Virus record (IMG/VR): IMGVR_UViG_3300045988_031779
Span: 1 to 37,395 of that record
Direction: 5' to 3' (one strand)
Source: a virus
Lineage: Duplodnaviria; Heunggongvirae; Uroviricota; Caudoviricetes
Length of the DNA stretch: 37,395 nt
In this document: positions 4,268 through 24,873 of the stretch, in pieces
How positions within the stretch are numbered: the first letter of the stretch is position 1
How the letters are laid out: each line of letters starts with the position of its first letter
Made by a program: the position numbers and the translations under genes
The notes under the pieces: model-generated
The model's input: only the letters and a program-made list of their open reading frames with translations
The model's database searches: none
What the model was told of the DNA's origin: nothing

Positions 4268-4780
4268 GTGGCTTATATGGATAATACTATCTTAGGCGCA
4301 TTGATAGGTGCAGTTATTGCTATAGTTTCTACTTACATAAGTGCAAGGCAAGGATACAAAAACAGCATAAAATTAGAGCGCGAAAAAATATTAAGAGATA
4401 AACGTGAGCAATTATTCACAAATTGCATACTTACTGAAAAAGTCATAGCTTCAAACAAAATGGCTATTCTCAATTTTGTTAACAATGCCAGTTACCACTC
4501 TGATAGTAAATTTGACACATCAAAAGTCAATCCGTTGCAAACGATGGAAATGCTAATAAACATATACCTTCCTGAGTATAAAAAAGACTTACAAGAACTC
4601 AATAATATGTATAACAAGTTTCACAATTACTACTCTCAATATACATGTGCACATACCTTCAAAAATATGCCTGATAATGAGAAGTTGAAGTTTATTGAGG
4701 AAGCTGATTTTTATGCAAAAAAGATATATGGCAAACTTAATGATATTAAGGACAAGATATCATTTAACTCAATAGTATAA
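4268..4780 (+). CDS. Membrane-anchored protein (one N-terminal TM helix, Lys/Asn-rich soluble domain), 170 aa, AT-rich cargo
   Basis: ATG at 4268, 16 nt after the previous stop, with AGGTGG upstream. TM helix ILGALIGAVIAIVSTYI. No family recognised. Confidence 0.6.
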   Translation: MAYMDNTILGALIGAVIAIVSTYISARQGYKNSIKLEREKILRDKREQLFTNCILTEKVIASNKMAILNFVNNASYHSDSKFDTSKVNPLQTMEMLINIYLPEYKKDLQELNNMYNKFHNYYSQYTCAHTFKNMPDNEKLKFIEEADFYAKKIYGKLNDIKDKISFNSIV

Positions 4781-4855
4781 CAGCGATACTGCCGCTGACG
4801 GCTCCCGCTGCGGTGGGCGTTCTGCGGATTCCCGCCCGGGCGGCGGTGGAATTCG

Positions 4856-5740
4856 TTAAAAACAAGGCCGCGAAAGCGGCCTGTTTGATAACTGTGCAGT
4901 TTTCGCTGATCGATTTTCAGCTCTAAATTCAAGAACCGTTTCAATATTTCTTTCCTTCAGCATATCAATAACATTTTTATTCATTTGACTATCACTGGTT
5001 AATAACTGGTAAACGTCGCTTCTCTCTTTATCAGAGTTTTCTTTAACAGCTGCTTTGCATGCCAAATGCTTATTGAAATTTTCTACATCGCTAGTACAGG
5101 AATTTACGGCTGCTGATGAAATATCAGACGCTGAAGAAACACCATCATCCAAACGTTTTATAGCATTTTCTATACATGAGTTAAGGGAATAAACGACAAC
5201 TGAGCGATACCCTTCAGACGCACACCATTCTAAATTTCTTGAAGGATCGAGTGGTTTTACTTCGCTGGATTGAATTAACTTGTCAAAAACTGACTTATAT
5301 TCAATCTGTTTTTTATCTATAGCCCATACTTCAGTAGCTGATTTATAATTCCCCGTATGCCTATTAACATCAAATCCATGTTTTATAAGCAAATCTGCCC
5401 ATGAAAGATTTATTGATTCATTGTTATGAGGCCATTTTCCTGTCAGAACCGCCCCCATAGACCCCATATATCCGCCATATGATGGTATAGCACCATGGCT
5501 CAGTAACTTCTCAGCAACCACAGGGCAATTAATTACATAAGAGGCGTAAAGCCCATTCCATAAAGCCCCTCTATAGTAATCGCCACGATTAGGTTCTTTT
5601 AAGTCGATAGCCTTTGATAATTGTTCACACGTTTTGCATGCATCAAAGTTATCCTTATTGCATTGCAATGAACTGGCAGCTGTAGGATTTACAGAGACTA
5701 TTGAAAGCACTATGCCAAAAAACAAATTTATTTTTTTCAT
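4856..5740 (-). CDS. Secreted protein with Sec-type signal peptide, AT-rich; weak ankyrin-repeat-like motifs, 294 aa
   Basis: ATG at 5740, 1 nt after the stop of the 1129-aa virion protein gene. N-terminus MKKINLFFGIVLSIVSVNPTAASS is signal-peptide-like; ADLLIKHGFDVN and AEKLLSHGA resemble ankyrin repeat ends (weak). Confidence 0.55.
   Translation of the reverse strand: MKKINLFFGIVLSIVSVNPTAASSLQCNKDNFDACKTCEQLSKAIDLKEPNRGDYYRGALWNGLYASYVINCPVVAEKLLSHGAIPSYGGYMGSMGAVLTGKWPHNNESINLSWADLLIKHGFDVNRHTGNYKSATEVWAIDKKQIEYKSVFDKLIQSSEVKPLDPSRNLEWCASEGYRSVVVYSLNSCIENAIKRLDDGVSSASDISSAAVNSCTSDVENFNKHLACKAAVKENSDKERSDVYQLLTSDSQMNKNVIDMLKERNIETVLEFRAENRSAKTAQLSNRPLSRPCF
4866..4883. terminator. Bidirectional intrinsic terminator candidate (AGGCCGC-gaaa-GCGGCCT)
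   Basis: 7-bp GC stem with GAAA loop, flanked by AAAAACA upstream and GTTTGAT downstream, at the convergence of the plus-strand module and the minus-strand late operon; overlaps the last codons of 4856..5740. Confidence 0.5.
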
Positions 5741-18880: not shown

Positions 18881-20556
18881 TGTGATTGCCCACCCTGACC
18901 ACTAACTGCATTCGCCATAGCTGACAAAACACTCGGATCCGAAGTTTTAGCTTCACTTAGCGTCTTGGCACCCTGTGCCGCCGCCATCCCCATCGCCATC
19001 ATTTGTTGCTGCTGTTGTTGCTGTGCCCGTTGCTGGCGAGCCTGCTCAACCTGTTCCTGCGGAACAATGACGGTTGGAGACACTCCGGACATATCAGCGA
19101 ATGCATCGATCGCCTGATCAACGTTGAGTTTGTCGAGAGCTTCTGGTTTCGCTTGCGCAAGTTGACCAATGAAGTTAACCGTGGACGCCAGACTGGACAG
19201 GCCGATAGACTTCTGCGCCTGAGCCATGACGGAAATGTATTCGACCTTCAGGGGCATGCCTTCCATCGCGTCAGGCGGTGGCGGCAGCATGTTTTTACGC
19301 ACCATCATCGAGAAAGAGCGATCAATGAGAGGATTAAGACATTCGTCGTTCAGGCGCTCCAGAACCGGCCCCAACATCAGAAGTTTTTCTTCTTTCATTT
19401 CGATCACCGCTTCCACAGGCATCGAGCGGGTATTGATGTTCTGCAACATCATGAACAGATCGACAAAGTAGGCGCTGTTAATGATTTGACGAGTGTCCTG
19501 AATGTCTGCCACCAAATCTGCTGTACTGGGGTTAACCAGATAAGCAGGCCTGAAACCATCCTGACCAGTAATCTGATCGATATACGTGATGTCGCCAGGA
19601 AGAAGGGAGGCACGCTGATTCTTGAGGGAAGTCGGAGCAACCATCGGCGGATTGGTAGCTTTATCAATCAACTGCGACTTGCGCTTCTGGAGAAGCTGCA
19701 ATGCCTTAACAGGTCCAAGCGCCAGCATACCCGGGCATGATGATCCATAAACATCTTCGCCGTTAACTTCCCAGCGCGGAGCCATAATTGGAAACTCATC
19801 GAATCCGGACTCACGCAACAACTTGTCGTTATCGCCACCAACCTCGTAATAAACCGATTTGAATGGCTTGTTCTTGCTATCCAGCTTCGATGTATCGCGG
19901 TCAATGTTCGGGTAAACCGAATGCATCACTTCAATCCACTTCTCGTAGGTGCCGCTTTCCCACATGCTTTTTACGGATTCGCTGACGTTATTTAGCCCGA
20001 ATTCCTGAACAAGCTGACGAACAGTCATAGAGAACTTGCGAAAACAGGTGTCCACACTGCCACGAGGTGAGTTAGCCAGGTAGTAACTGCCTATCGGGAA
20101 TGGCATTGTGCGAATGATGTCCTCGTCATCCTCCAGCACTGCCATTGCACCAGTGCTGTATGTGCCGAGGCTTCCGTATAACTGCGGCAGCGACTGATAG
20201 AGATTCGACTTATTGAACATATCGTTCATGCGGTTCTGCACCGCCTCAAGCCACAACTTAACAGGGCCATAATCCATCATTTCAGGATCTGGCGTAGCCA
20301 GGCGAAACCACGGACGCGCGGGGCTTGTGATGCCTGACATCATGCCGCTGGCGAGAGTGCGCGCCGCCATAGTCCCGGTCGAATCAATAATGCGTGTATT
20401 GCGTCGATCGTTACGGTTGACCTCAGAAGTCAGAAAGCGGGAACCACGCGGGTTGATGTAATCACTCAACTCGCGCCAGTGCGGCTCGAACGACTGACGC
20501 TCGCTTTCAAGTTGTGCGAACTGTTTGTTCAATCGCTCTTTAGTTGTTTCCGCCAT
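18877..20556 (-). CDS. Portal protein, 559 aa
   Basis: Size, position at the head of the structural block, Gln/Ala/Met-rich C-terminal tail typical of portal proteins. Confidence 0.7.
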   Translation of the reverse strand: MAETTKERLNKQFAQLESERQSFEPHWRELSDYINPRGSRFLTSEVNRNDRRNTRIIDSTGTMAARTLASGMMSGITSPARPWFRLATPDPEMMDYGPVKLWLEAVQNRMNDMFNKSNLYQSLPQLYGSLGTYSTGAMAVLEDDEDIIRTMPFPIGSYYLANSPRGSVDTCFRKFSMTVRQLVQEFGLNNVSESVKSMWESGTYEKWIEVMHSVYPNIDRDTSKLDSKNKPFKSVYYEVGGDNDKLLRESGFDEFPIMAPRWEVNGEDVYGSSCPGMLALGPVKALQLLQKRKSQLIDKATNPPMVAPTSLKNQRASLLPGDITYIDQITGQDGFRPAYLVNPSTADLVADIQDTRQIINSAYFVDLFMMLQNINTRSMPVEAVIEMKEEKLLMLGPVLERLNDECLNPLIDRSFSMMVRKNMLPPPPDAMEGMPLKVEYISVMAQAQKSIGLSSLASTVNFIGQLAQAKPEALDKLNVDQAIDAFADMSGVSPTVIVPQEQVEQARQQRAQQQQQQQMMAMGMAAAQGAKTLSEAKTSDPSVLSAMANAVSGQGGQSQ

Positions 20557-21281: not shown

Positions 21282-21324
21282 GAATCACGCCTAAGGACCG
21301 TGATGCCAGAAGTTCCAGGGGCTT

Positions 21325-21368
21325 GGCGGTGATGGTTTCCCTTGAAGGACTATCACCGCCCTTTTTAC
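21325..21368 (+). terminator. Intrinsic terminator after the tRNA (GGCGGTGAT ... ATCACCGCC followed by CTTTTT)
   Basis: 9-bp stem with a long loop followed by a T-run on the plus strand; a second GC hairpin plus T-run lies at 21445..21469 just before the ORF at 21479. Confidence 0.45.
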
Positions 21369-21478
21369 AGCATGACGCCATTGCGATGGCTTCATGCTGT
21401 AAACCAGTACAGCCACGGAAGGCATAACTCATTGCTTCCAGTTCGCCCGATTCGCCGGGCATTTTTTTTAGGTGAGAT

Positions 21479-21902
21479 CATGAAAACAGCCGACATGCTA
21501 GCTAAATATCTAAATGAATGGCCGTGCAAATATGTACGCATTGTTCAGGGTGATGACTCAATTTTTTATGGTGTTTTTGCAGGAAATGAAATGCTTTGTG
21601 AAGCAATTCCAGGTGAGCGACTTGCCGGGTTAACGCTTAGCGATGACCATGGAATAGGAGTTACTTGCCATGACTGGATTTCAGCGCAGAAAACTGAAAT
21701 GGAAAAAGGCAATGTGTTTGATATTTCTCGCGCTGTATACGCCAAAGAAAAAAGTGATGATGATTACATGCGCGAAAACTTATACAACATGAAGTTACAA
21801 TGCCTGGCTGAAGTGCTTAGTAAAAGATCTTTACTTGATGTGGTTGGTGCTGAGCAGGACGCCAAGGCAATCAACGCCGCATTCGATAAAATAACCTTCT
21901 AA
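21479..21902 (+). CDS. Hypothetical moron protein, 141 aa
   Basis: ATG at 21479 with GGTGAG 4 nt upstream (track ORF 21342..21902 is the same frame extended). Encoded on the strand opposite the flanking terminase and portal genes, downstream of the tRNA. No family recognised. Confidence 0.5.
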
Positions 21903-21905
21903 CGC

Positions 21906-21920
21906 CGTGACATGTCACAA
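21906..21920. repeat. 15-bp element CGTGACATGTCACAA (copy 1; contains the 12-bp palindrome GTGACATGTCAC)
   Basis: Exact second copy at 24171..24185; each copy is followed by a terminator-like hairpin. Confidence 0.6.
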
Positions 21921-21922
21921 AC

Positions 21923-21949
21923 AGCCAGCCTATGAGCTGGCTTTGTTTT
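21923..21949 (+). terminator. Intrinsic terminator (AGCCAGC-ctatga-GCTGGCT followed by TTGTTTT)
   Basis: 7-bp stem plus T-rich tail directly after the stop of 21479..21902 and the palindrome. Confidence 0.5.
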
Positions 21950-21992
21950 ATCCTCACCAGAGGATATCAACGACATTATCCCCACCAGCGGA

Positions 21993-23468
21993 TTAAGCAT
22001 AGGGATCGTAATCTGTGATGGCCTTGCCTTGCTGGTTCTGCTGACCGGGAATTCGCAGACGCTTAGACACAGGGAACGCAAACGTCAGCAGTAGCGCATC
22101 GCCTTTACCCGGTGAACGCCCAAGCCGCTCCTTGATATCTTCCTTCGGTTCGATAACGATTTTACCGTCCACTCGAACTTTGTACTCTGCCGCCGACAGG
22201 TCGTCTGCTGTTTCCTGGTCATCCAGCATGCCGCCCAGCCTCAGCCATGTCTTGCATGAATTGAACATCTCCCCACGCTTGTTGAGCATCTGCGGGTCAG
22301 TAGACGCGCCACCGAACGGAACAAGTTGCCATGTACGACCCCAGCCGTCACCGATTGACTTCAAACCGGTTCCGTAACCGAAGTCGATGAACACCGCGTC
22401 AGCCTGATACTGGTCTTCAAAGTCAGCGATACGCTTCGCCATAATCAGATCGTCGGTAGTCTTGTTGCCAGTCCACAGCACCTTACTGTGTAGCCCCTGC
22501 CGCAGGTATATCACAGCGTCATCAACGCCGGAGTATGCCGGGTCAACGCCGATTATCACCGGAGCATGTGCAACCTGCGCAGCGGTTACCACCCGTTTCA
22601 TTGCCTCGTCAGTAAGACCGGTAGGGATAAACTGCAATTCAGATGCATCAGGGAATATGCCACGCACACGGATTTTAACGAAGTCGCTGTCTTCCCCGTA
22701 GTCATCAACCCATTTCTGCAACTGCTGTTTGTTAGTGCCTTCCACCGTCCGGCTGTCAATCTGCGCAGTTTTCCAGCGGTGTTTATATTTGCGGAAACAT
22801 TCGCGAAAACGCCCGGTGTTACGTGTAGGGTTTCCGAACGCCACCCAAATAATCTCAGTGTCTTCGTCCGTAAGCGCACCCTCGGCAACTTCCCACACCA
22901 GATCCGCAATGTTCGACGCTTCATCAAACACCACGATGATGCGTTTGCGCTCGTTGTGTAGTCCGGCGAATGCCTCGGTGTTGTGCTCAGACCAGGGTAT
23001 TGCGTCAGCCCGCCACCGCTTGTCGTGCCCTAGGTCATTGCTGTACATCGCGGTAGCGGTACAGGTAAACCAGTCTTTCGTGATAGCAAGGTTCGACCAC
23101 TTGATAATTTCCGGCCAGGTCTTCGTTCGTAGCTGGTTGTCGGTGTTGGCGGTCACCACGACCTTACAATCCTCGCAAGTGGACATGCCCCAGTTGATCA
23201 GCATTGAGATGAATGCGGATTTACCAATACCGTGACCAGAAGCGCGTGCCAGCATAAGCGGCTGATAGCGCGTCTCTGGATTCTGCAGGTGATCACGTAT
23301 CTCTCGGAACGCATCAGCCTGCCACTGACGTGGGCCGGTGGCATGTGCCAGTTCAGTCCCCTCTTCCCCCCATGGGAACGCATAGAGGGCATAGCCAAGC
23401 GGATCGTGAGTGAACCCTGCAATATCCTCGATTAACTGCTCTTCAGGAGATAACGCTGTATCTGTCAC
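21993..23468 (-). CDS. Terminase large subunit, 491 aa
   Basis: Size, ATPase-like N-terminal region and acidic nuclease-like C-terminal region, 4-nt overlap with the small subunit gene upstream. Confidence 0.8.
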   Translation of the reverse strand: MTDTALSPEEQLIEDIAGFTHDPLGYALYAFPWGEEGTELAHATGPRQWQADAFREIRDHLQNPETRYQPLMLARASGHGIGKSAFISMLINWGMSTCEDCKVVVTANTDNQLRTKTWPEIIKWSNLAITKDWFTCTATAMYSNDLGHDKRWRADAIPWSEHNTEAFAGLHNERKRIIVVFDEASNIADLVWEVAEGALTDEDTEIIWVAFGNPTRNTGRFRECFRKYKHRWKTAQIDSRTVEGTNKQQLQKWVDDYGEDSDFVKIRVRGIFPDASELQFIPTGLTDEAMKRVVTAAQVAHAPVIIGVDPAYSGVDDAVIYLRQGLHSKVLWTGNKTTDDLIMAKRIADFEDQYQADAVFIDFGYGTGLKSIGDGWGRTWQLVPFGGASTDPQMLNKRGEMFNSCKTWLRLGGMLDDQETADDLSAAEYKVRVDGKIVIEPKEDIKERLGRSPGKGDALLLTFAFPVSKRLRIPGQQNQQGKAITDYDPYA

Positions 23469-24061
23469 TGATTGCCATCCTGACGTTCTTTCAGTCTCTT
23501 CCTGGCTGCCGCTATGCGATCAGCAATTGTCACATTCACATTAACATCCAGGCGTTCTTTGAATGCGTTGACGTCGACGTGCTTACCAATCAGTTCGAGG
23601 TTCTTCACCTTGTCAGGCCATTTAATTTTTTTGAGGATTGTCTCTATCGAATCCTCGTTCATGTTCATGATGGTCGATGACAGATCAAAGCCACTAAGCG
23701 TAGTGCGCCAGATTTTCGGCCACTCGCGGATTGGCTTAAGGCTCCCATCGTCGTTGAGGATGTCGATCACGTCCATCTGGTCGATCTCCACCAGGCGCAT
23801 GAGAACGTAATCAGCACTGACGCGCATTCGTTTGTTGCGCTCTTCCATCAGCTCGGCAATCCGTTTTTGAATGCGTTCATCGCGCATCATGAGACTGGCT
23901 TTAACTGCCGCTGTATTTGGGGAGAATCCTGCGTTAATCGCTGCCTGAGTCTGGTTTTCAGGCGTTTTGATGTATGACTGGCAATAAGCCTCCTGCATTG
24001 CTGTTAGTGGCTTAAATTGCGTTGATTTGCGTTTATAGGTTTTAGGTTCAGCAGGCATCAT
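23465..24061 (-). CDS. Terminase small subunit, about 198 aa
   Basis: Start preferred at the ATGATG at 24061; the track start at 24139 adds an N-terminal extension (TITTTVTITTVV) that is the translation of a direct DNA repeat and reads through a terminator. Motif PLTAMQEAYCQSYIKTPENQTQAAINAGFS resembles small-terminase N-terminal DNA-binding domains. Confidence 0.6.
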   Translation of the reverse strand: MMPAEPKTYKRKSTQFKPLTAMQEAYCQSYIKTPENQTQAAINAGFSPNTAAVKASLMMRDERIQKRIAELMEERNKRMRVSADYVLMRLVEIDQMDVIDILNDDGSLKPIREWPKIWRTTLSGFDLSSTIMNMNEDSIETILKKIKWPDKVKNLELIGKHVDVNAFKERLDVNVNVTIADRIAAARKRLKERQDGNQ

Positions 24062-24077
24062 AACCACCGTGGTAATA

Positions 24078-24094
24078 GTTACCGTTGTGGTAAT
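24078..24094. promoter_or_regulatory. Operator-like palindrome site 6: GTTACC-gttgt-GGTAAT, embedded in direct repeats GTGGTAATAGT
   Basis: 17-33 nt upstream of the small terminase start; direct repeats GTGGTAATAGT at 24069..24079 and 24087..24097. Confidence 0.4.
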
Positions 24095-24112
24095 AGTACC
24101 ATGCAAAATAAA

Positions 24113-24130
24113 GCCGCCATAGTTGGCGGC
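24113..24130 (-). terminator. Intrinsic terminator on the minus strand (GCCGCC-aactat-GGCGGC followed by TTTATTTTG)
   Basis: 6-bp GC stem with T-rich tail in the minus-strand sense, between the last early gene (24180..24518) and the terminase genes. Confidence 0.45.
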
Positions 24131-24170
24131 AGTATTCAAAACCCATCAAATTCATCATGCATAACCCACT

Positions 24171-24185
24171 CGTGACATGTCACAA
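24171..24185. repeat. 15-bp element CGTGACATGTCACAA (copy 2)
   Basis: Identical to 21906..21920; overlaps the stop of 24180..24518. Confidence 0.6.
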
Positions 24186-24518
24186 TATTAATTTCGTTTC
24201 ATGCCAGCCTTTAGTCACCCAGCATTGCGAGTCACCATTACACGGGCATGAATTCACAGGAACTCTCTCGCCGCACTTACCGCAACGTTTTCTGCTGATC
24301 GATTTTATACGCCCGTGCACGCGCGCATCATCCTGGCGGATCAGTAACGCTATATACTCACCAAATTCGTAAGGCGCACGCCCGGGGCGACGTGTGGCAC
24401 AGTTACGCTCCAGCATTTCAATTTCCTGAGCATCAAGCACAATCTCCAGCTTACGCACACCAGATGCAGCTTGTCTGGCTCCCTGAGCGGCTTTGCGCTC
24501 TGCTGCTGATTTAGCCAT
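24180..24518 (-). CDS. Zinc-ribbon protein, candidate late-gene regulator, 112 aa
   Basis: Basic N-terminal half and C-terminal Cys cluster RKRCGKCGERVPVNSCPCNGDSQC; last gene before the terminator and terminase block. Function inferred from position only. Confidence 0.5.
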   Translation of the reverse strand: MAKSAAERKAAQGARQAASGVRKLEIVLDAQEIEMLERNCATRRPGRAPYEFGEYIALLIRQDDARVHGRIKSISRKRCGKCGERVPVNSCPCNGDSQCWVTKGWHETKLIL

Positions 24519-24873
24519 TCTGATTTTCCTGCATCATGAGAAATACAATCATGGCGGCGCGGAGAACATTTTCATGCTCATGCTCCCAAATAGGGTTGGC
24601 AGAAGCACCGTGCAAACCGCTTTCGTTCCAGTCCCAGAGAATGTTAACTCCGTTATCAGCAATAATCGGCCATGCATCTGCTGGGTTTGCGCATGGGTTA
24701 AAGGATCCGCGCTCAACTTCTACTTCAACTGCGTCTCCGTTTACAATGTCTCCCTCAAATGAGATAAACACCATCGCGCCATTCTCACCTTCTTTGTAAT
24801 CCGGTGATCCGTTATGAATGGCTTCGAATACCGCCGCGTTAATTTCAAAATCACTTAACTGTGAATAGTCCAT
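24511..24873 (-). CDS. Hypothetical acidic protein, 120 aa
   Basis: Start preferred at ATG 24873 (AGGAGG 7 nt upstream, ATGA overlap with the upstream stop) rather than the track start at 25020. Confidence 0.5.
   Translation of the reverse strand: MDYSQLSDFEINAAVFEAIHNGSPDYKEGENGAMVFISFEGDIVNGDAVEVEVERGSFNPCANPADAWPIIADNGVNILWDWNESGLHGASANPIWEHEHENVLRAAMIVFLMMQENQNG

Follow-up and report, generated by a model that had tools for sequence, protein, structure and literature searches.

A GTGAC-N2-GTCAC palindrome at operon boundaries of temperate phages as the probable binding site of a ribbon-helix-helix/zinc-ribbon protein

A 37,395-nucleotide stretch of a tailed-phage genome (IMG/VR record IMGVR_UViG_3300045988_031779, positions 1 to 37,395; hereafter the window) carries two exact copies of the 15-mer CGTGACATGTCACAA, at 21906-21920 and 24171-24185. 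Each contains a perfect 12-bp palindrome, GTGACATGTCAC (21907-21918 and 24172-24183), of the pattern GTGAC-N2-GTCAC, and both copies read TTGTGACATGTCACG on the minus strand, on which the late genes lie. Comparison across phages suggests, with a probability of roughly 60%, that this dyad is the duplex binding site, at operon boundaries, of a 112-amino acid (aa) protein combining a ribbon-helix-helix (RHH) domain with a zinc ribbon, rather than a late promoter or antiterminator signal. The dyad travels with the gene for this small DNA-binding protein, which it abuts, and is therefore most likely that protein's binding site. This work demonstrates the dyad's conservation, the specificity of its spacing, its linkage to the gene and its adjacency to terminators, together with the RHH fold of the modelled protein.

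The original prediction, that identical 15-mers flank the genes for the small (terS) and large (terL) terminase subunits, was confirmed to the nucleotide by a scan of both strands, which found no further copy with at most one mismatch in the window; the remaining matches were palindromic self-matches and two matches with three mismatches. Copy A includes the TGA stop codon (24180-24182) of the 112-aa open reading frame (ORF; 24518..24180, minus strand), and copy B begins 3 nucleotides (nt) past the TAA (21900-21902) of a convergent ORF (21342..21902, plus strand). From the window alone this repeat is only mildly unusual, as 133 of 300 Markov simulations of the window contained some 15-mer direct repeat, and five of 300 contained two identical perfect 12-bp palindromes. 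Its significance rests on comparative conservation.

Conservation of the dyad and linkage to one gene family

In Salmonella phage epsilon15, whose intergenic DNA around these sites is not alignable with that of the window, the identical 14-mer TGTGACATGTCACG occurs at three places: over the stop codon of gp49, which is homologous to the 112-aa protein; beyond the terL terminator; and over the stop codon of gp18, 2 nt before the terminator closing the structural operon. In phiV10 the copy after terL is exact and that at p55 has one mismatch. The layout of copy B is repeated in phiV10, epsilon15, loci L125-L133 and many viral contigs, with the core 4 nt from the hairpin base at all sites of this type.

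Linkage to the gene was quantified in loci taken solely by homology to the 112-aa protein, with one genome per species. These comprised 47 species-level loci (46-80% identity) from Citrobacter, Klebsiella, Pantoea, Erwinia, Pectobacterium, Rahnella, Serratia, Morganella and other genera, plus five phages with 33-62% identical proteins (N15, and phages of Vibrio, Yersinia, Aeromonas and Pantoea), giving 52 loci and 495,149 bp. GTGAC-N2-GTCAC occurred 55 times, in 45 of the 52 loci, against a chance expectation of about 0.5. The same half-sites at other spacings were almost absent from this DNA (two at N0, two at N6, one at N8, and none at N1, N3, N4, N5 or N7), and each of six composition-matched control dyads was found zero times. 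The dyad lay at the gene's stop codon or no more than 30 nt away in about 37 of the 47 species-level loci, as well as in epsilon15, Pantoea phage AH07 and N15, where CGTGACTGGTCACG lies over the stop codon of gp46 despite only 33% protein identity. The Vibrio and Yersinia phages also have the dyad, but away from the gene's stop. In Pectobacterium the dyad is displaced by 26 nt, and at two loci it is present in tandem at a distance of 27 bp; its conservation is therefore not a coding constraint.

Each genome has one to three extra copies elsewhere. Across whole genomes there are three dyads each in N15, Vibrio phage K303 and epsilon15, and two in TL-2011b, while lambda, which lacks the gene, has none. 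The idea that each genome carries exactly two sites, as an obligatory loop pair, was rejected given the phages with three and the Yersinia phage, which has one dyad and a near-copy. One of the N15 dyads lies inside repA (gene 37), and another between gene 33 and the terminator preceding genes 32-30.

The association was also evident in viral contigs, where scans with the N2 14-mer and an N3 (matS-spaced) control each returned at least 120 matches, such that contexts rather than totals were compared. Among the matches listed, the gene was present at 46 of 120 loci for N2, and 0 of 120 for N3. Three contexts recurred. Firstly, the 14-mer lay at the 3' end of genes homologous to that for the 112-aa protein, with wholly different DNA beyond it according to lineage (type A). 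Secondly, it lay directly past the terL terminator, facing differing convergent genes (type B). Thirdly, it lay between the last gene of a late or an ant operon and a bidirectional terminator, and faced the gene for a small secreted peptide (type C). Gene and site, judging from these comparisons, pass down together as a single unit among temperate phages of Enterobacterales and Vibrio, including Uetakeviruses and N15-like, lambdoid and P2-like phages. The suggestion that the palindrome is bound by a regulator is supported to the extent that these comparisons point to a functional, conserved dyad of protein-binding type tied to the zinc-ribbon protein.

A few further contexts of the 14-mer were seen in lambdoid prophages. 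In four loci (L027, L038, L107 and L112) the dyad lies over the stop codon of a Cro/YdaS-like helix-turn-helix gene, directly upstream of a replication initiator gene, which is the position of nutR-tR1 in lambda. Elsewhere (L073:1238, L114:5267, L011, L016, L021 and L123) it covers codons 2-6 of a QuuD-like antiterminator gene (MRDMSQVLERW); one of these loci, L073, also encodes the RHH protein, 12 kb away. In L107:1256 and L077 it lies inside zinc-finger codons (VTCH) of a second, unrelated Q-like family. These dyads in Q-like genes could be functional Q-control sites or coding coincidences. Several intragenic 14-mer matches translate as R-D-M-S-(Q/H) or V-T-C-H, and some are plain chance.

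The pattern of variation indicates what is being conserved. All ten half-site bases are invariant across the 55 dyads, from E. coli to Vibrio phages, while the central dinucleotide varies (AT 41, AC 5, CT 3, GT 3, AG 1, GC 1 and TG 1). No compensatory stem change was found in about 100 sites, and the RNA hairpin that the palindrome could form (-4.2 kcal/mol, z = -0.78) is no better than those of shuffled sequences. The combination of invariant half-sites, a variable centre and a weak RNA hairpin therefore points to duplex DNA, predicted to be read by a symmetric dimer, rather than RNA structure. The centres at first looked linked to lineage, being TG/CA in all three N15 dyads, and AC in two of three in K303, with GC in the third. 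However, co-variation of the centre with protein lineage is unsupported, as closely related Pantoea proteins are paired with AT, AC, GT or CT centres.

The candidate binding protein and its action at transcription-unit ends

The 112-aa protein has no match to a Pfam or NCBIfam family, and belongs to phrog_536, annotated 'transcriptional regulator'. Its family is small, at 210 clusters at 50% identity among 1.84 billion representatives, and has four invariant cysteines (C79, C82, C91 and C99) and an invariant basic N-terminus, AERKAAQRARQ. An AlphaFold model built on a 72-sequence alignment (pLDDT 93.2) comprises a basic N-terminal helix, an extended segment (19-29), helices at 30-42 and 52-74, a cysteine-rich ribbon and a last helix. 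The strand followed by two helices places the modelled protein in the RHH superfamily. A symmetric dyad genetically linked to the gene is what would be expected of operators for an RHH dimer, and the protein probably binds it.

Terminators are the second feature to which the dyad is repeatedly adjacent. A GC-rich hairpin starts 0-8 nt from the core at 45 of 181 unique dyads, and 36 of these 45 hairpins have a T-rich tail on the side far from the dyad. Offsets from the core cluster at 0-1 nt for type C and at 4 nt for type B, and at least six distinct hairpin sequences are involved. These hairpins have an A-run on the other side, and hence are bidirectional, with the dyad sitting where the U-tract would be for a polymerase arriving from the opposite direction. 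At copy B, for instance, a polymerase coming from terL would meet UGUUUGUGACAUG past the hairpin. In Uetakeviruses the extra copies sit where transcription units end, with 0-4 nt separating them from the hairpin base of a bidirectional terminator, on its side without the T-run.

This geometry suggests a mechanism in which a dimer of the protein occupies the dyad and serves as a boundary element. Positioned beside the hairpin, the dimer would stall polymerases that approach from the side lacking a U-tract, reinforcing termination. Such a stall would insulate terS-terL, or the structural operon in relatives, from convergent transcription of accessory genes, and at the 3' end of its own gene the bound protein would limit read-through out of the early operon. 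DNA bridging between sites would be an alternative to such a roadblock or insulator.

Several observations weigh against this interpretation. The link between protein and site is one of association, and RHH repressors do not usually have a site at their own gene's 3' end. About seven of the 52 gene-bearing loci have no dyad within 5 kb, and none was found in 7 kb of Aeromonas phage 3. Conversely, some dyads occur where the gene is not seen, on contigs covered in part, both in the gap between a cro-like gene and a replication gene and inside Q-like genes. Many 'home' sites beside the gene have no terminator, being followed instead by the start of a gene, by a LexA-box promoter or by an excisionase gene, and the terminator adjacency of copy A in the window is the product of a deletion.

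Other candidate functions were rejected. The element is not a cos or pac site, as the epsilon15 record begins after the terminator, and Pantoea phages have an excisionase gene next to the element; the phiV10 record starts inside copy A, its depositors having cut the circular map at the p55 stop codon. A CRP/FNR-type site was dismissed because the GTGA-TCAC spacing is four, not six, and a toxin-antitoxin pair because the downstream gene is not conserved.

The terminase region and its transcription

The window represents a phiV10/epsilon15-like (Uetakevirus) prophage. Positions 21300-24600 are 95-98% identical to phiV10-like E. coli podoviruses, the terminase genes are about 80% identical to those of epsilon15, and 710 of 5426 complete E. 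coli genomes carry the region as a prophage. In the late direction, a NinX-like gene and the 112-aa gene end the early-right operon, followed by the terminator at 24130-24113, terS, terL, the bidirectional terminator at 21923-21949, the convergent accessory gene and the head genes (Table 1). Relatives have other genes in place of the accessory gene and keep the palindrome, with phiV10 and epsilon15 each carrying a different gene. In a Citrobacter braakii relative (L126:6036-8486), terL encodes 816 aa rather than 491 aa, possibly through an intein or other insertion, and the second palindrome still follows.

Table 1. Features of the window, and of the N15 genome where stated, with positions, strand and supporting detail
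Feature	Position	Strand	Detail
Copy A of the palindromic element	24171..24185	.	Core 24172-24183; overlaps TGA stop of the RHH-zinc-ribbon gene; 'home' site, beside the same gene in most relatives
Copy B of the palindromic element	21906..21920	.	Core 21907-21918; between stop of the convergent plus-strand gene and the bidirectional terminator after terL
112-aa RHH and 4-Cys zinc-ribbon protein gene	24180..24518	-	phiV10p55, epsilon15 gp49, N15 gp46 family; phrog_536; proposed dyad binder
Small terminase subunit gene terS	23465..24061	-	198 aa from ATG at 24061; Pfam Terminase_2, 7.5e-30
Large terminase subunit gene terL	21993..23468	-	491 aa; annotated terL in phiV10, epsilon15 and other relatives
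Convergent accessory ('moron'-type) gene	21342..21902	+	186 aa; phrog_4846
Intrinsic terminator, end of early-right operon	24105..24130	-	Stem-loop 24130-24113 plus T-run; homologous stem-loop annotated rho-independent in epsilon15
Bidirectional intrinsic terminator, terL versus convergent gene	21923..21949	.	T-run serves plus-strand gene; phiV10 record annotates a terminator after terL
Mini-ORF MHDEFDGF*	24136..24162	-	3' remnant of a 70-aa gene (MPKIRYDLEDM...YDEFDGL*); window versus L063
Two repressor-operator-type dyads, TTACC-N5-GGTAA	24061..24093	.	24061-24075 (one mismatch) and 24079-24093; upstream of, and overlapping, terS start
TTACC-N5-GGTAA sites	858, 1978, 2071, 3138, 20868, 24061, 24079, 29188, 29250, 31221, 31558, 31606, 32318, 32380		15 bp each
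Remnant of type-C site	4780-4885		Bidirectional terminator AAAAACAAGGCCGCGAAAGCGGCC at 4858-4882 present; palindrome cut to TGT
N15 (L179) dyads, N15 positions	28550, 33237, 39269		Same 12-mer GTGACTGGTCAC, one inverted

Both hairpins flanking the terminase genes have the GC-rich stem-loop and T-run of an intrinsic terminator, with folding energies at z of about -2 to -2.4. On the minus strand, 24130-24113 consists of GCCGCCAACTATGGCGGC plus TTTATTTT; on the plus strand, from 21923-21942 onwards, the sequence is AGCCAGCCTATGAGCTGGCT plus TTGTTTTAT. The latter hairpin is bidirectional because of the A-run on its other flank, and on its terL side is followed by TGTTTGTGACATG, which is the palindrome. 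Hence the terminator scan and folding bore out the earlier observations that each copy adjoins a terminator hairpin, and that the terminase genes lie between two terminators.

The roughly 40-nt spacer between copy A and its terminator corresponds to the last eight codons of a 70-aa gene, which is intact in relatives such as L063 between the palindrome and regulator gene on one side and the terminator on the other. The mini-ORF in the spacer being a remnant of this gene, the window has therefore undergone a deletion of about 190 bp here, and a leader peptide or attenuator was rejected for the same reason. Five relatives (L125, L006, L007, L131 and L116) have a strong sigma-70 promoter past the palindrome, with a -10 element overlapping a LexA-box-like TACTGT-N8-ACAGTA, which drives a small gene (85-119 aa) inserted ahead of terS that resembles an accessory gene under SOS control.

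Between the terminator and terS, no canonical promoter could be defined by a promoter scan. However, the interval contains two of the 14 TTACC-N5-GGTAA dyads of the window, in which 0.64 would be expected. These cluster around the immunity gene, and also precede terS, the head genes, the left-end genes and other operon starts. The epsilon15 record marks homologous sites as 'repressor' binding, and as a set they resemble the dispersed, P1-C1-type regulon of a repressor. The dyads at 24061-24093 probably form the control region of the terS-terL unit, which appears to have its own repressor-controlled start. The palindrome is not one of these Uetakevirus operators, which differ in sequence and are separate elements at 24061-24093 and 12 other places. 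The original prediction had left late transcription either to start in this interval or to read through the terminator by antitermination; the two dyads therefore make a start in the interval the better alternative, and read-through is not favoured.

This bears on the possibility that the 112-aa protein at the palindrome controls the late genes, either by activating a late promoter or by loading onto RNA polymerase in the manner of Q or N, thereby reading through 24113-24130. The gene is the last of the early-right operon, the annotation of the related phage TL-2011b lists no Q homologue, and a sigma-70-like GTGACA-N18-CATGAT overlaps copy A with a terminator after it, as in the lambda pR'-tR' arrangement; epsilon15 has a comparable GTGACA-N17-TAAATT, and some lambdoid prophages have the dyad at a nutR-like place between a cro-like gene and a replication gene. 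Yet the promoter-like hexamers are not conserved in the flanks of relatives, the operators lie directly upstream of the terS start, and the spacer that would carry the signal is a deletion remnant. In relatives the next ORF starts 9-20 nt past the dyad, or a LexA-box promoter or xis/excisionase gene follows. N15 has the gene and three dyads, yet its own Q (gp40), late promoter and terminator lie elsewhere, and the protein matches no Q family in Pfam. Furthermore, copies B and C lie after late genes or before a final terminator, where antitermination would be pointless. The earlier idea that the palindrome serves the terminase genes as a late-promoter or antitermination signal is consequently disfavoured, and control of this kind is unlikely.

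MatP, mosaic junctions and other known systems

The half-sites of the phage dyad are exactly those of matS, the site of the E. coli Ter macrodomain protein MatP, with one central base fewer (12 bp, N2). The matS motif is GTGAC[AG]N[TC]GTCAC, of 13 bp (PMC3603311, citing Mercier 2008), and MatP binds it through an RHH domain (PMC12756933). The RHH-zinc-ribbon protein and its dyad might then be a phage counterpart, and evolutionary relative, of MatP/matS, which bridges sites into loops or acts on host processes. Two or three sites would be bridged with the ends of the loop at operon boundaries; alternatively, host processes dependent on SMC/MukBEF or MatP would be manipulated on phage DNA. With the spacing changed by one base, the phage and host systems would stay orthogonal. 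However, no homology between the 112-aa protein and MatP was detected by HMMER against the PDB, by Pfam at lax E-values or in two hhalign runs, neither Pfam MatP (PF06303) nor MatP_C (PF17414) matched, and a search for MatP homologues returned near-identical sequences only. The likeness, on the model, is at the level of the fold only: MatP has a four-helix bundle at its N-terminus and a C-terminal coiled coil, whereas the 112-aa protein lacks both and has a four-cysteine zinc ribbon. Similarly, matS occupies the chromosome terminus, whereas the phage dyads occupy gene ends in phage genomes. Hence the dyad and protein are best classed as an RHH regulator with dyad sites bearing a likeness to matS, and common descent with MatP/matS is doubtful.

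The palindrome also coincides with mosaic junctions. Identity between the window and phiV10 extends through ...TGTGACATGTCACGG, past which they are unrelated, and in TL-2011b the terminator, palindrome and accessory gene have been swapped as one block. At the third (type-C) site, one and the same nucleotide forms the junction of the palindrome with at least six different cassettes. In the window this site is preserved as a hairpin at 4866-4882, ahead of which lies the 3' end of the gene for the small secreted peptide (...GGRSADSRPGGGGIR*); the TGT remnant of the palindrome stands at the junction with a 294-aa gene (4856..5740), whereas the palindrome is intact in L079, TL-2011b and epsilon15. 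As the palindrome is kept while neighbouring cassettes swap, it therefore marks mosaic junctions.

These junctions could be explained if the palindrome and terminator were purely a short recombination linker at a boundary of module exchange, with no binding protein. Along with the abrupt end of window/phiV10 identity, the cassettes meeting at one nucleotide and the truncated third copy, this would fit with the RecT-type recombination functions encoded by this phage group. Nevertheless, RecA or Red homologous exchange needs more than 12-14 bp, so the element is too short for it. The ten bases that stay invariant from E. coli to Vibrio phages as the centre drifts indicate a sequence-specific constraint, not mere shared ancestry. 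A linker would leave unexplained both the strict N2 spacing and the tie to one gene family, and boundaries are expected at any retained cis element. It is accordingly quite improbable as a full account. The comparison of junctions in related prophages that the original prediction proposed, in which the window and phiV10 diverge directly after the palindrome and the TL-2011b block is replaced, does support its coincidence with module boundaries, but these are read as a consequence of a retained cis element rather than its function.

Binding of the prophage dyads by host MatP itself is a less plausible variant of the matS comparison. It would draw on the identical half-sites (PMC3603311), on MatP being an RHH protein (PMC12756933), and on the hosts of dyad-carrying phages. 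These phages infect Enterobacterales and Vibrio, which is the range of MatP. However, a one-bp change in spacing turns the half-sites by about 36 degrees, and the spacing is strictly N2: both window copies and all 55 dyads near homologous genes have a 2-nt centre, while 3-nt centres number zero in the window, in TL-2011b and in the 495 kb around the gene. Among the matches listed in viral contigs, N3 sites never co-occur with the gene. Moreover, the dyad is linked to a phage gene rather than a chromosomal position, and true matS is avoided, being absent from 500 Escherichia and Salmonella prophages (PMC3603311). The strict spacing therefore makes the host protein a very unlikely binder.

Some matS-spaced sites were encountered. 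In Vibrio phage K303 (L180), the 13-mer GTGACACCGTCAC at 19491-19503 fits true matS, with the N2 dyads at 21342, 33227 and 35942. In viral contigs of 34-37% GC (L190, L206, L247, L255, L258, L266 and similar), matS-spaced 13-mers TGTGACAATGTCACG adjoin arrays of the repeat CTCTATCT and extra GTGAC half-sites; these are iteron-like, and belong to an unrelated low-GC phage group.

The least plausible alternative is an RNA element, in which a transcript hairpin (a boxB-like nut site, or one for processing or stability) is bound by the arginine-rich N-terminus of the 112-aa protein: although the palindrome closely follows stop codons and precedes terminators, like nutR in lambda, that N-terminus is invariant and basic, and the flanking T...G could form a U-G pair in late-strand RNA, the stable hairpin, conserved loop and covarying stem of an N/nut site are replaced by a weak hairpin, a variable 'loop' and an invariant stem, the orientation of the flanks is not kept (L110), and the protein has the predicted fold of an RHH DNA-binding protein.

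The proposed pairing of RHH protein and dyad resembles several known systems in part. Phage RHH repressors such as P22 Arc and Mnt, as well as CopG and the TacA and ParD antitoxins, have operators that overlap the promoters they repress. In contrast, the site of the 112-aa system is at the 3' end of its own gene, its copies abut terminators, and the protein has an additional zinc ribbon; unlike the RHH antitoxins, it has no conserved partner toxin gene downstream. As in the lambda Q/qut-pR'-tR' and N/nut modules, the regulator is last in an early operon, with a short signal and then a terminator separating it from the late genes, and some relatives have the dyad at a nutR-like position, as in N/nut. 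Unlike these modules, there is no protein of the Q or N family, and no conserved promoter, pause signal or RNA hairpin loop; N15 has a true Q besides the dyad module, and terS is apparently under repressor operators. The dispersal of identical short palindromes for one protein over separate regions is shared with the P1 C1 operators and the N15 SopB centromere sites, and in partition modules the site directly follows the binder's gene, as with the dyad. However, the sequence and protein family differ from those sets, there is no ParA-type partner, and the dyad also occurs in integrating phages.

No description of the dyad, or of its pairing with a cognate protein, was found in the literature searched. 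These results identify a cis element, and its probable cognate protein, in well-studied phages, including epsilon15, phiV10, N15, phiKO2-type phages, P2-like Yersinia phages and Vibrio phages. They provide a testable function for a family so far called 'hypothetical protein' or 'transcriptional regulator', and a useful annotation landmark for module junctions in enterobacterial prophages. The occurrence of matS half-sites in elements that avoid matS would reflect either a shared origin with MatP/matS or an orthogonal look-alike. For the Uetakeviruses, the layout of transcription units is clarified, with repressor-operator dyads at their starts, and bidirectional terminators with GTGAC-N2-GTCAC at their ends.

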